Shown piece after piece: positions 14,656 to 19,743 of a DNA stretch of 64,000 nt (positions are counted from its first letter, which is position 1; every line of letters starts with the position of its first letter). The DNA is from Piedraia hortae CBS 480.64 (Eukaryota). Both the position numbers and the translations under genes were made by a program. The notes under the pieces were generated by a model. The model saw only the letters and a list, made by a program, of their open reading frames with translations. It did no database searches and was not told the DNA's origin. The stretch covers positions 1 through 64,000 of the forward strand of contig MU006023.1 in assembly GCA_010093745.1 (NCBI GenBank). The letters run 5' to 3'.

Positions 14656-14812
14656 TATCCATACCATTGTAATATCTAGTAAAATTAGTTGAAGTGCTGC
14701 TGGACGGCATTTACCAAACCGTTGATCTTCAATGCTGTATGCACCCCGCTTTCAATTCTATCGTTCACCCACCACTCATCCACCACCTCCCCCCATCTCC
14801 CAAATAATCAAC

Positions 14813-15519
14813 ATGGTAACAACCCGCCGGATCCCGGCATCCTCCACCTCCTCCACCACCACCAAGCAAAGATGGACCCACACCCTCCAAACCCCAATCC
14901 TCCTCTGGCTGTGTCTCAGCCTCCCCCTCGTAGCGTGGGATACAGGGTACATTCTCTTCCGACCGCTAAGCATGCCAGGCGGTAGCCTCCATTTCCTTTG
15001 GAAACCCTACGCTCTCTACGGTAAAATCGACCATCTCTACGGAATCAAAGCGTGGGAAGCACATAATGGGTGGACGACGACACAGGGGTGCTTTAATGCG
15101 TGCGAGACGGGGGCGTATCTGTGGTATTTATTTTTGATGTATAGCTATGGAAGGGCTGGGGATGGAAAGTGTGTGGATGGAAAGAAAGAGAGGGATGGAA
15201 CGATAACAGTCGAGGGAAAAGTCGCTGCTGTTGCTGTGTTACTGGGCTACAGTACGAGTTTCATGACGTTCTTCAAAACGGTGGTTTACTGGGGAATTGA
15301 GATTCTCTCGGGGTTCGACAATATTGGGCATAATGACTTTTTCAGGCTGGTATTTCTGTGGATTGTTCCAAAGTGAGTGTTAGGTGTGAAGTTGATGATT
15401 GTGCTGACTAGCTGATCAGTGGTGCTTGGCTGGTTTTTCCGGCTTATATGATGTACACTTTTGGGAAGGAAATCTTGCAAGGGTTGGAGGCAGCTACGAA
15501 GATGGATAAGTACAGGTAG
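14813..15519 (+). CDS. EXPERA/emopamil-binding-like membrane protein
   Basis: WLCLSLPLVAWDTGYILFRPLSMPGGSLHFLWKPYALYGKIDHLYG and LWIVPNGAWLVFP; intron 15373-15419. Confidence 0.75.
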
Positions 15520-15654
15520 TGAATGATTCCTCTACCTGGGATAAGAAGATTACCTGCTCACTGCCGTACCGGTTAGCCAGTCACAGTAGCAGAACTACTC
15601 CATTACTCCTGTACTTCATCTACACAACTGTATTAGGGTAGTAATCAGTATCAC

Positions 15655-17328
15655 TTAGGCCGGTGGAGGCGGAGGTGGGATATCGCTTGGCGGAGGCGGC
15701 GGAGGTGGTATGCCGTCAGCGGTGGGCGGCGGTGGCGGGGGTAGTTCAGACCCAAAAGGCATCGCCTGCTGCCACGGCGGTACTGAGGCCTGCTGCGGCT
15801 GCTGCCAGGGAGGGATTACGGCGCCGGGAGGGCCGGCATTGAAATCGCCTCCCCACGGTGGCGCCGGCGCTCCGTTTCCACGCGCTTGCTGCCAAGGCGG
15901 AATTGCGCTCACAGCAGCTTGACGCTGCCAAGGAGGCAATTGATCCGCTGGATCACCGTCCTGCCAGCCAATCTGTCTCTGTGCATCTGCGCCCATGTTG
16001 CCTCCAATCTCATGCATCAGTTTCTCAATCTCGTTCTCGGGACCAGCAACGGGGCGACGCGGCGGAAGATTGCGCCAATCCTGACCACGCGCACGATCAG
16101 GGCAATCGCGAGCCATATGGCCGGCATTGCCACAAATGCGACAAATGATGTTAGCAGTGAAGTTGCGCTGGTGTGGACAGTCGTATTTGCGATGGCCAAT
16201 CTCGCCACAGTTCTGGCAAGCCTGGTTCTCGTCGTCACGCAGCGTACCGTTCAGAGCAGCGAGTTCACGCAGCTGATTGCGCTTCAACTCGTTCTGGCCT
16301 TCCGGAATCGAGGCGGCCTCCTCTTGTTAGTTATGCCAAAGAAGTTGATGGATTACATACCGTCTCAATCACATTATGGATGAGCTGCTTAGCCTTGTTG
16401 ACCTTGTCTTCAGTGTCGGCCATAATCAGACAATGGAGGTCTTCGTCTTGGTTGCTAGCATGAGCAGCGTCAGACTTGCCCTTGCCTTCCTTGACGGAGC
16501 CTTTGCCGCGAATGGCAATCTTGGCGCCCGACTCCGTTTCCATTTTCTTCAAAGTGTTGCCACGTGGACCGATTAGGAGACCGACTGTTAGCAGGAAAAC
16601 TCATGTTAGTACAATTCAGTTAGACAAAACAGCCGTTGATGGCGAGGAACAAACCAACGCCATCAACAGGCAGCAATGGGGGCTACTGGTGGGTTAGGAA
16701 GCATACTGAAGTTAATTTCCGGGTAGTCGTTGACCGGTACGTAGACCTTTTCCTGAGTCTTGGTCGGCCGCCGGTAGTCTGCAGGAGGATGGTAGCTCGG
16801 GATGATTCTCATCGCCTTCTCAATGAGCCTATGGCGCTCATCCTCCAACTTCTTCCGGTAGCGGAACTCGCGCGTGTTTACACGTCGGCCAAAGTTGTCG
16901 TACTGTGGCGGTGGGGACGGGGAGCTAGAGAGCTTTGTTAGTTACAGATTGCACAGCCTCTGGTCATCCTACCGATCTCCTTCATTCGGCACCACATCGT
17001 TGATGCGCAGTTTCTGGCTGATCTCCTCAATGCGCAAATGCGTGACGTAGGCATCGAGCTGTTCGGCCGTCATGGCGGCCGTAATGGCCGTCGGCAGGTT
17101 CATGAGTCCCGCAGCTTTGTTGTCCGATGCCTCGCCCCATCGGTTACGTTTTCTGCGCTTCTTCGTGCCGTCGGGGTTCAACTCTGGCGCGCGCCGTTCG
17201 GGACTGCGGCCGCGCTTGGCAGAGTCCAAGGGCGGAGTGCCATCTTCGCTGTCGCCACCGAAACGGCGACGCGTACCCAGAGGTATCGTGTTTGCTCCAG
17301 TTTGGCCGGCAGGATTGCGCCAGGACAT
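15655..17328 (-). CDS. MSL5: Branchpoint-bridging protein (BBP/SF1/Msl5)
   Basis: [22 protein letters not shown]2 domain ([18 protein letters not shown]…[13 protein letters not shown]), two CCHC knuckles and a Pro-rich tail. Introns at 16925-16972, 16585-16706 and 16318-16360. Confidence 0.96.
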
Positions 17329-17465
17329 GATGCTCGTTGAGGTGTTGAGTGGTTGGGATCTGAAATTTTGGTCCGGGCGTTAGGGTCACAAAGTCATGCG
17401 AACGGAAAGCTGCCGGCGCTACACTGTATATGGTACAGTATATTTTACGATTACCACTACATTTA

Positions 17466-18530
17466 TCAGCCTATTCTTCCGCCGCTGCCCAACACATCAG
17501 TCAAATTCACCTGTCCCGTCCCTCTCTCCAACGGTGTTGGCTGAGAACTCCCTTTCTTCCACCCAATCATATATATAAACTTGAAGGTTGCCGGAATTCT
17601 GACTGACCCATCCTCTTGCTTTTCTCCGTAAAGTTCCTTGTATATTCCGTCTGTGGCAAGTAGCACGTCTCGATTGATGCCGTCTGGATCTCGTCGTAAA
17701 GCTGCATTGCTTTCGCCCATTGCCTGTAAATCTGTTAGGAGAGCAAACACGTCTGGATACTCGACTATTATGTCATCCACATCCACCGTAAGAAGCTGGA
17801 AGTGAGCCCGGTTTAACAAGTTGCCCACGTCTCTTACGTCAATCATGGGCGAGATGTGTGTCCCAATGCCACCGAGACGTTCTTGTTCGGCCAGTTGGAG
17901 CGATCCGCGAAGCTCGTAGAGCGTGTCTCCCCCCGGCATAGCACAGAGGAACGGTGCATCGGGCTTTAAGACGTTGTTGATTTGCGCAAGTACTGACGGT
18001 AGGTCGTTTATCCAATGAAGGGAGAGTGATGATATGGCAAGATCGAAAGAATCGGCCTCAAAGGGAACATGCTCAACGTTCTTCAGAACCTCCCTTTTGA
18101 TGTCAATATCTTGATTGAAACCTTCTTCTTGATCCCGGTGAAGCAAGGTTTCGCTGGTATCCACACATACGATTTCACCGATCCTGTTGGCGATAGGCTC
18201 TGTGACTTTCTTCTCCGATTCCAAGTCCGGATTCGGTCTCGCGAGAGCTCGAGCAATGTTGCATGCATTGGCTCCAAAATCTAAAACTCTGGGAAAATTT
18301 CTATTGATATCCAACAGACGACTGCACAGTCTGATTGCAACTTCATCTCGAAGATAGTCAACCTGCCGGGATAGATTCACATTTGAGGCTGCTCTTTCCC
18401 GATGGAGCCACTTTGTGCGAGAGTCAAAAACTTCCACAATAGGACTACCCCCTGCCTGAATGGCGTAGCACCGTATTCCTTGGCGCATCAACAGCGCATT
18501 TCGACAGATGGACCGAAGCAAGATGGACAT
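17466..18530 (-). CDS. NDUFAF5: Mitochondrial complex I assembly factor, SAM-dependent methyltransferase fold (NDUFAF5-like)
   Basis: Presequence-like MSILLRSICRNALLMRQGIRCYA; motifs DYLRDEVA, SSLSLHWINDLP, GGDTLYELRGSLQLAEQER, DLQAMGESNA and PATF..IYMIGWK. Confidence 0.92.
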   Translation of the reverse strand: MSILLRSICRNALLMRQGIRCYAIQAGGSPIVEVFDSRTKWLHRERAASNVNLSRQVDYLRDEVAIRLCSRLLDINRNFPRVLDFGANACNIARALARPNPDLESEKKVTEPIANRIGEIVCVDTSETLLHRDQEEGFNQDIDIKREVLKNVEHVPFEADSFDLAISSLSLHWINDLPSVLAQINNVLKPDAPFLCAMPGGDTLYELRGSLQLAEQERLGGIGTHISPMIDVRDVGNLLNRAHFQLLTVDVDDIIVEYPDVFALLTDLQAMGESNAALRRDPDGINRDVLLATDGIYKELYGEKQEDGSVRIPATFKFIYMIGWKKGSSQPTPLERGTGQVNLTDVLGSGGRIG

Positions 18531-18663
18531 GCTTGGCGGTTCGTGCCTTCTAAAACGGATATCCAAGAATAGGTTTGCATCACGTGATGTATTCTCTACA
18601 CCATCGTCAGCCAAGGGTTTGAGGAGATAGAAATGGCACAGCTGTGAATTATACATTGTCAGA

Positions 18664-19743
18664 ATGTCTTCCGCACTCCATTTGTCCATACCGGCGTCTT
18701 CTATCACCACCCCCGACAGCGGCAAGCCATATACGGTCTACCACATAACCCTCCAGCTTCCCTTGCGAAAGCTGGAGGTTAAGAAACGCTACAACGATTT
18801 CGTCCAGCTCAACGAGAAATTAACCTCTCAAACGGACCAACCACCACCAATCCAACTCCCGCCCAAATCCTGGATCCGGAGAACAATAAACAGCGACGCC
18901 CTTACGGAGGAGCGAAGAACCGGGCTGGAACGGTACCTCAAAGGGATATTAGAGGCCGAGGATGCGCGCTGGAGAAGCAGCAAAGCGTGGAAAGACTTCC
19001 TGGGCATAGCCGCGACTATCGGCGCAGCCAAAGAGCAGCAACATAACGGCGGTGTCAATGACCCTTACGAGTGGCTAGACGTGCACAGGACACTAAAGAC
19101 CAAAATCAACCTTGCTCGACAGCTCCTCAGTCAGCGGGACTCTGCCATGACGGCACAGCAGCAGCACAGTCTCTCTATCGACGCTAAAGCAAGTTTAGTC
19201 CGCGCTGCGACGCTAGTTGCACAGCTCTCAGACGGCTTGAGCAGCTCAAGTAACCCAAATAGAGACTCTGCAGGCTCCAGGCGGCTTGGAGAAGGAGAAA
19301 TAAGACGGCGACGGGACCTTTTATCGGCAGCGAAGAAGGAAATCGAAGGACTAGAAAGCCTTCTCAAGAGTAACCCTACAAAGGTATACTCCTCAGCATC
19401 GGGCTCCGGGGCGGCAGCCACATCCACTGATAAAACTGTCCTGTTGCAGGGTACGGGCCCCAAGCCCTTGGGACGTGTCTTAGGCGGTCCGCTCAAAGAG
19501 ACCAATCGCACGCGGGAGCTCGATAATGCGGGTATTCTGCAGCTGCAGCAAACTATCATGCAGGAGCAGGAGGAAGATGTACTTACCCTCGGCCAGACTG
19601 TGGCTAAGCTCAAGGATATGGGTCTGATGATTAATGAGGAGTTGACGATTCAGAATGAAATGCTGAGTCTGCTGGATAATGATGTCGATAGGGTGCAGGG
19701 GAAGGTTGATACCGCGAGGAAGAGGATTAAGAAGATTAGTTGA
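18664..19743 (+). CDS. VAM7: Vacuolar SNARE with PX domain (Vam7-like)
   Basis: N-terminal PX domain (KKRYNDF, LPPK, ERR.GLERYL) and a C-terminal Qc-SNARE coiled coil (EQEEDV…INEELTIQNEML), with no TM anchor. Confidence 0.9.
   Translation: MSSALHLSIPASSITTPDSGKPYTVYHITLQLPLRKLEVKKRYNDFVQLNEKLTSQTDQPPPIQLPPKSWIRRTINSDALTEERRTGLERYLKGILEAEDARWRSSKAWKDFLGIAATIGAAKEQQHNGGVNDPYEWLDVHRTLKTKINLARQLLSQRDSAMTAQQQHSLSIDAKASLVRAATLVAQLSDGLSSSSNPNRDSAGSRRLGEGEIRRRRDLLSAAKKEIEGLESLLKSNPTKVYSSASGSGAAATSTDKTVLLQGTGPKPLGRVLGGPLKETNRTRELDNAGILQLQQTIMQEQEEDVLTLGQTVAKLKDMGLMINEELTIQNEMLSLLDNDVDRVQGKVDTARKRIKKIS

Follow-up and report, generated by a model that had tools for sequence, protein, structure and literature searches.

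A long intron in the gene for the fungal branch-point-binding protein carries conserved branch-point motifs at both of its splice sites and may sense the level of that protein

Introduction

How does a cell hold steady the level of the protein that reads its branch points? The branch-point-binding protein (BBP, also SF1 or Msl5) is needed to splice its own introns, which amounts to a built-in positive loop, and in the literature that we searched we found no description of how its level is held steady. The question is raised here by the BBP gene of Piedraia hortae CBS 480.64, which lies on the minus strand of the stretch of DNA analysed (64,000 nucleotides, positions 1 to 64,000 of contig MU006023.1; hereafter the window). 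A preliminary description of this locus had singled out intron 2 of the gene, and had proposed that excess BBP binds decoy sites in it and blocks the splicing of its own message.

Results

The gene encodes the BBP/SF1/Msl5 orthologue

The features of the locus are as follows.

15655..17328, minus strand: BBP/SF1/Msl5 gene, four coding exons, 486 aa
17328-16973, 16924-16707, 16584-16361 and 16317-15655, minus strand: BBP coding exons
Residues 61-170 and 186-265 of the 486 aa: SF1-HH and KH domains, followed by QUA2, zinc knuckles and a proline-rich tail
16925..16972, minus strand: intron 1, 48 nt, ordinary, serving as control
16585..16706, minus strand: intron 2, 122 nt, phase 1, interrupting the KH domain
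16701..16706, minus strand: intron 2 donor GTATGC, without T at +6
16693..16697, minus strand: donor-proximal extra CTAAC, intron nt 10-14
16663..16665, minus strand: in-frame TGA met on retention, inside the hairpin 5' arm, after 14 added residues
16632..16671, minus strand: hairpin, 10-bp core 16667-16658 / 16644-16635
16619..16623, minus strand: middle extra CTAAC, 3' of the hairpin
16605..16611, minus strand: putative branch point TACTAAC, assigned by its position, branch A 16606, 21 nt from the intron end
16600..16602, minus strand: skipped proximal AG, 6 nt after branch A
16585..16591, minus strand: acceptor overlapped by CTAAC (CTAACAG)
16318..16360, minus strand: intron 3, 43 nt, ordinary, serving as control

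From its predicted protein, the gene can be identified as the BBP/SF1/Msl5 orthologue, with an SF1-HH domain, KH-QUA2, a zinc knuckle and the branch-point contact residues. This protein, P0021, matches Pfam PF16275, PF22675 and PF00098, and its nearest solved structures are human SF1 (E 2.5e-78) and yeast Msl5 (4WAL, E 1.3e-45). In the 4WAL alignment, equivalents of the contact residues N163, G166, R172, K252-R253 and Q255 (Msl5 numbering) are all present. According to the accessible part of PMC4338336, the KR dipeptide and the QUA2 Gln confer the RNA specificity of Msl5, Val165 packs on A5 of the branch-point RNA, Asn163 and Gly166 contact the RNA, and C7U is tolerated in vitro; P0021 keeps both the dipeptide and the Gln. 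The spliced product equals P0021, except for one additional residue in a model of it built with an alternative 40-nt intron 3 acceptor. Intron 3 has a tandem acceptor, AAGAG/GAG (16321-16316, minus strand); the joint seen in sequencing run X1 (see below) is the 43-nt form, and the 40-nt form adds one Glu.

Upstream on the same strand, a methyltransferase gene (17466-18737, minus; Pfam Methyltransf_11) ends some 135 nt upstream of the start of BBP translation. In a convergent neighbour gene (plus strand, region 15300-15780), a GT..AG intron of 47 nt lies between 15372 and 15420; the X1 contig of this gene extends to 15780, overlapping the 3' end of the BBP coding sequence. A Pfam search with the upstream ORF 14726-15376 gave no match.

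Intron 2 carries three extra CTAAC motifs

Intron 2 splits the codon of Ile192, which corresponds to Val165 of yeast Msl5, between the equivalents of Asn163 and Gly166 (4WAL alignment). The preliminary description had counted four branch-point motifs in it. Four CTAAC are indeed present (GTTAG on the plus strand at 16587, 16605, 16619 and 16693), but the one at 16605 is the likely branch point, which leaves three as extra, among them the one that overlaps the acceptor. The rest of the layout was described correctly: a perfect TACTAAC (16611-16605) and a CTAAC just past the donor (starting at intron nt 10) are there, the hairpin arms 16635-44 and 16658-67 pair and can be extended to about 16671-16632, and the X1 joints bear out a length of 122 nt for intron 2, with 48 and 43 nt for introns 1 and 3. 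Translation through the retained intron reaches, as had been stated, a stop ahead of the GxxG loop, giving a predicted product of 205 aa. Use of the skipped AG would put 5 residues in before the same loop.

This arrangement is not expected by chance. None of 20000 whole-intron shuffles had four CTAAC, and 2 extra motifs lie 5' of the branch point where shuffles predict 0.07. The whole intron folds at -31.6 kcal/mol (z -2.97), and 0/200 shuffles folded equally well. Note that the window copy is a reduced form of its family, with 122 nt against a median of 184 and one 5' motif against the usual two or three.

The motifs and the weak splice sites are conserved

Orthologous introns were collected by scanning metagenome contigs with an exon-end pattern, which picks DYPEINF genes only and gave at least 116 loci. 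Among the matches listed, the 117 loci including the window comprised 78 BBP genes and 39 non-BBP chance matches. The 78 listed BBP loci divided into 70 with a complete intron 2 at the identical position, 5 incomplete and 3 intronless; removal of 6 duplicates from the 70 left, among the matches listed, 64 distinct introns, the window's included. Introns 1 (49 distinct) and 3 (34 distinct) of the same listed loci were used as controls.

In these listed loci, intron 2 has a median length of 184 nt, compared to 54 and 52 nt for introns 1 and 3, and 4.3 CTAAC per intron, compared to 0.5 and 0.4. Extra CTAAC 5' of the branch point number 192 in the 64 listed introns, where shuffling predicts 18.2. 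The preliminary description had proposed aligning orthologues, and the positions of the motifs proved to be conserved: on the donor side, a CTAAY starts at intron nt 3-12 in 59/64 listed introns (0/49 and 0/34 in introns 1 and 3), a middle CTAAY is found in 50/64, and on the acceptor side CTAA lies directly against the AG in 47/64, again with 0/49 and 0/34 in the controls. The 5' extra CTRAY sites are CTAAC in 132/143 cases, and the control branch points in 24/49 and 13/34. The A preceding CTAAC is mostly kept at true branch points and not at the later 5' sites, and most extra sites are without the full U2-pairing heptamer.

The splice signals themselves are unusual. A donor +6 T is found in just 2/64 listed copies of intron 2, against 35/49 and 29/34 in the controls, so the donor is weak in 62/64. 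The distance from branch A to the intron end is 21-36 nt in 61/63 listed orthologues; in the control introns the acceptor mostly lies 9-18 nt past branch A, with a distance of at least 21 nt in 1/82 and of at most 7 nt in 4/82. An AG 5-9 nt past branch A is skipped in 57/63 listed orthologues, and its use is predicted, over 58 listed cases, to cause a frameshift in 41, to add in-frame residues in 15 and to bring in a stop in 2. Retention brings in an in-intron stop in 63/64 listed introns.

Two further features were noted at the 3' end. In the Leotiomycete-like loci L029, L031, L044, L047, L057, L065 and L096, an additional conserved AG is found some 40 nt upstream of the acceptor, 3' of the middle CTAAC, and is used by four public gene models. 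TTGA is present 16 nt or less ahead of the branch point in 31/64 listed introns.

The 64 introns are related, and single linkage at 70% identity gave 15 clusters, one with 45 members; the donor-side motif is present in 12/15. By their nearest named proteins, whose class names we assigned ourselves, the loci belong to Dothideomycetes, Eurotiomycetes, Lecanoromycetes, Leotiomycetes and Sordariomycetes, a placement resting on those proteins and not on a quick tree (42/64 loci), where eight loci cluster together in what we suspect is an artefact of exon joining. The identical 5' motif also appears in read-through peptides of public models from Aspergillus, Trichoderma, Xylariales, Aureobasidium, Periconia, Diplocarpon and Polycauliona. 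So placed, the element is shared by at least five Pezizomycotina classes, which include both moulds and lichen fungi. It is real and conserved, and probably regulatory.

The element is perhaps older than these classes. Two deep fungal BBP genes have an intron at the same position: in L015 (1223-1307, plus) it is 85 nt long with four CTAAC, of which one overlaps the donor, and in L017 (1093-1200, minus) it combines a CTAAC on the donor side with a hairpin and a distant acceptor. L017 is also, among the matches listed, the sole case with a stop at codon 3. The best full-length named match of L015 is 57%, and L018 matches many classes at 85%. In L018 and L108 the intron is present and the motifs are absent, and L089 is nearly so. 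L081, L100, L108 and L111 have intron 2 and no intron 1, and could each be transcript or gene.

A hairpin precedes the middle motif

A stem occupies the same place in the orthologues, after a pyrimidine-rich stretch (mean pyrimidine fraction 0.74 at intron nt 20-50) and before the middle motif, with no sequence common to the classes. In 30/49 cases its foot lies between -4 and +3 nt from the middle CTAAC, against 319/980 shuffles (33%). Local folds reach z < -2 in 27/62 introns; whole-intron folding across the family is modest (median z -0.72).

The preliminary description had also called for stem covariation, and the outcome was divided. In two clades both sides changed in 5/16 and 9/15 pairs, which 8/500 and 0/500 shuffles matched, and in a third clade double changes were found in only 2/28 pairs; note that these sets hold 6-8 related sequences and that the structures were derived from the same alignments on which the changes were counted. 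Covariation of the putative hairpin is thus supportive, not conclusive. A predicted pairing between the 5' GCTAA and a TTAGC located 3' of the branch point is not supported, as it is invariant in one clade and absent in the other two.

Intron 2 is found spliced and retained

One run, X1, covers the BBP locus. None of the listed datasets with this stretch is registered as RNA; X1 is labelled 'RNA?', consists of contigs only, was examined over 15300-17600, and was taken as RNA solely from its four spliced joints. Among these are joints that remove introns 1, 2 and 3 exactly, intron 2 as a single 122-nt joint. In addition, a 182-nt contig spans the whole of intron 2, flanked by 30 exon letters on either side. 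The spliced joint has a depth of 558 and the retained contig one of 277, contig depth being a poor measure. By depth arithmetic, X1 has no contig over introns 1, 3 or 17313-17418, but the assembler may lose introns 1 and 3 when they are retained as short bubbles: holes between contigs are not evidence, and were used neither to rank the introns nor to rule out DNA. No joint at the near AG is listed in X1, and small variants are dropped by contigs. Both spliced and retained forms therefore exist in X1, with a hint of substantial retention. Constitutive splicing, which the preliminary description had set against its own proposal, is not what this one RNA-like run displays, since the retained contig stands beside the spliced joint.

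Public gene models carry similar forms. Among 308 proteins examined, whose selection was biased by the protein lengths used in the search, 248 are spliced normally at the intron 2 site, 24 are spliced at intron 1 and terminate within intron 2 (14 are NCBI models of named species, 10 come from unnamed contigs), 23 carry in-frame insertions, and the remainder are other or motif-less. We infer that the models ending in intron 2 follow transcripts. Intron 2 would account in this way for many public fungal BBP models that are truncated or have insertions in KH.

The first part of the intron avoids stops

In-frame stops at intron nt 8-45 make up 2/163 triplets, compared to 19/80 and 19/57 in the controls. 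The TAA of the 5' CTAAC is in stop phase in 0/132 cases (15 distinct positions; nominal P 0.002, optimistic because positions are inherited), and other stop triplets are likewise depleted in frame (6/53). The read-through tail has a median of 43 aa (range 3-63) and a mean hydropathy of 0.96 over aa 9-25. Since in-frame stops are avoided in the first 45 nt, the truncated protein may matter, either through a role of its own or through a need for its disposal. This avoidance is not predicted by simple feedback through nonsense-mediated decay (NMD), and is unexplained. According to a Fusarium study, alternative splicing may not be coupled to NMD (accessible part of bioRxiv 2021.11.08.467853). Given this preprint and the stop-free 5' part, we doubt that the retained BBP mRNA is subject to NMD.

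Other elements and other genes

Several other identities were considered for intron 2 and rejected. For an intronic C/D snoRNA, a C box was found in 1/64 introns and C plus D boxes in 0/64. For an introner or miniature inverted-repeat element, there is one match in genome G000, and the position is the same in 70 listed loci. A stwintron interrupts a splice signal of an outer intron; it has a conserved donor of its own, and its excision rebuilds the outer signal. Here internal donor-like hexamers occur in 11/64 introns, scattered, and X1 has a single 122-nt joint. Finally, a 21-nt CTAAC..CAG at the 5' end of the window intron might have served as an intron 1 acceptor, but the first AG of the orthologues falls anywhere at nt 5-165, and X1 has no such joint. 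Rfam gave only sub-threshold chance hits: no family reached gathering score, either around the gene in the window or in 8 orthologous loci.

In G000, a donor-plus-CTAAC pattern has 137 matches, against 522 for the reversed pattern, and more than two CTAAC in 260 nt were found in 0/31 of the donor-plus-CTAAC loci that were read (30/137 plus L118). CTAAC triples with gaps of 25 nt or less have just 22 matches in this genome. BBP is the only gene where self-reference explains the motif. One other match, L156 (G000:C2:340842-343891, minus, about 1550-1435), lies just ahead of the ATG of a protein with an RRM domain (Pfam RRM_1) that resembles the nuclear poly(A)-binding protein Pab2. Three CTAAC fall within 50 nt there and are followed by CTGAC and ACAG; the region is possibly a 5' intron with extra branch motifs. 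The clusters L158, L163 and L166 lie in or before genes that, judged by eye, presumably encode an RNase III protein, Vps4 and a septin.

Discussion

Intron 2 as a sensor of BBP

We favour, with moderate confidence, the explanation that intron 2 is a sensor of BBP concentration: excess BBP would fill the extra sites and occlude both splice sites, leading to unproductive retention. When BBP is scarce it would occupy just the strongest site, the true branch point with its ACTAAC, and the intron would be spliced; when BBP is abundant the weaker extra sites would be occupied as well. BBP at intron nt 8-14 could then hinder U1 at the donor, and BBP on CTAA-AG could hinder recognition of the acceptor. 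The hairpin would fold the spacer away and set the pyrimidine-rich 5' part beside the middle site, and the two together might act as a BBP-U2AF65 decoy without a usable AG. The outcome would be retention or use of the near AG, and either way the RNA-binding groove of KH would be cut or split. The least sure step is the fate of the retained mRNA, which might go to NMD, be held in the nucleus or be translated into an N-terminal fragment.

The self-reference, the motifs on both splice sites and the conserved weak donor and 3' end all fit a negative-feedback switch, and the weaker flanks of the later 5' sites, compared with the true branch point, fit a threshold. Against feedback, most introns of this length would contain a stop by chance alone. 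The autoregulation first proposed is partly supported, by the conservation of motifs and hairpin and by the partial retention in X1. What the preliminary description had missed is that the motifs flank each splice signal, the weak donor and the 3' geometry, the skipped AG and the avoidance of stops in the 5' part.

Alternative explanations

Sequence alone cannot separate repression from enhancement. The extra sites might be enhancers, with BBP near the weak donor and along the intron aiding the assembly of U1 and U2AF, so that the intron would be spliced preferentially or kept up when BBP is scarce, as a buffer or positive loop. BBP does bridge to U1 through Prp40, and a weak donor and a far acceptor need help. 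In yeast RPL7B, intron-shortening hairpins enhance splicing (accessible text of PMC12311795). We nevertheless consider enhancement unlikely: the motifs sit on the acceptor and close to the donor, where they are well placed for occlusion, about one third of the X1 contig depth is retained, and an intron needing rescue could just have become as short as introns 1 and 3.

It is quite unlikely, in our opinion, that the sites serve another reader of CTAAC (U2 snRNP, U2AF, the helicase that removes BBP, or another KH/STAR protein), which would tune BBP to spliceosome load or stress. The cluster sits in the BBP gene, no other splicing-factor intron was found among 16/22 of the triple-CTAAC matches in G000 (genes judged by eye), and the extra sites mostly lack the heptamer with which U2 would pair in full. 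Yet U2 pairs with the same motif, and since U2 snRNA prefers it too, the identity of the reader cannot be told from the letters alone. Moreover, C7 is held almost strictly to CTAAC though Msl5 tolerates C7U in vitro, and QKI represses a dual branch site by excluding SF1 (accessible part of PMC13004596).

A second protein as the purpose of the intron is also quite unlikely. Here the retained mRNA would give the SF1-HH domain with a hydrophobic tail, titrating U2AF65 or being degraded, or internal splice sites would give full-length forms with a split KH. The missing stop phase of the 5' CTAAC and the depletion of other stops in frame would follow from this, as would the hydrophobic tail and the in-frame insertions in public models. 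However, the nucleotide motif is conserved rather than the peptide (ANP and LTP frames both occur), the tail length varies from 3 to 63 aa, there is no conserved internal donor (any in 11/64, scattered), and use of the near AG shifts the frame in 41/58. Note that this reading is compatible with feedback, as its output. We tentatively extend the sensor in this direction: BBP might police its own level by branch-point decoys on both splice sites in at least five classes, with the retained message also read into a KH-less, U2AF65-holding fragment as a second brake, a combination that is possible although we would not yet expect it.

That the element is neutral or unrelated (chance motifs, an inserted inverted repeat or introner, an intronic snoRNA) is hardly credible, since all that speaks for it is, in the stem of the P. 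hortae intron, an inverted repeat of 10 bp and a word resembling a C box. The single copy in G000 and the outcome of the Rfam and box searches speak against it, and the positional conservation over five classes refutes it.

Significance and comparison with known systems

If intron 2 does sense BBP, it offers a compact answer, directly testable in laboratory strains of Aspergillus or Neurospora, to how the level of this protein is controlled, and a natural reporter of BBP activity in vivo, which is hard to show for most introns. The element would work like splicing-factor autoregulation by unproductive splicing: the host is a splicing factor gene, both isoforms are present in X1, a premature stop occurs in 63/64 introns, and the cis elements match the specificity of the factor. 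It is a candidate member of this class.

We found no description of the element in Rfam or in the freely accessible main texts searched; genome-wide retention tables in supplements may list the intron. Term look-ups in the accessible text of two fungal RNA-structure screens (PMC8216456, with 17 structures, and PMC5640933), of papers on SF1 and autoregulation (PMC3061054, PMC12746065 and PMC6547761) and of PMC4288187 had no relevant match. Autoregulation of splicing factors is itself already known; what appears to be new is that the branch-point reader's own motif is repeated in cis on the splice sites of its own intron.

The closest parallel is the retained intron of fungal srp2/SRSF5 described by Lareau and Brenner (PMC4379411, as far as its text was accessible). 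As there, a splicing-factor gene has one unusually long intron at a conserved position, which is retained and has in-frame stops; the retained form of Neurospora srp2 is stabilised without NMD. The srp2 intron sequence is, in that text, 'not notably conserved' among Aspergillus, whereas BBP intron 2 keeps its motifs, spacing and stem. Unlike srp2, BBP is the core branch-point reader, and the putative cis element is the core splicing signal itself.

Two other systems use the same motif. In Gomafu/MIAT, tandem UACUAAC motifs bind SF1 and slow the splicing of weak introns (accessible part of PMC3116199), in trans and from the exon of a vertebrate lncRNA, whereas the BBP repeats lie in cis, in the gene's own intron and on its splice sites. 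QKI at the dual branch site is likewise a KH-QUA2 protein that blocks splicing from repeated ACUAA (PMC13004596, in the part available), but it is a competing paralogue acting on other genes, and BBP would act on its own message. Finally, yeast RPL7B (PMC12311795) and RPL30/L32 (cited in PMC5640933) share with BBP, in the portions of these papers available, a conserved intronic stem and a proposed self-regulation of splicing in a fungal gene. In those genes the protein reads structured RNA, whereas the BBP stem has no conserved sequence and the proposed read-out is single-stranded CTAAC.
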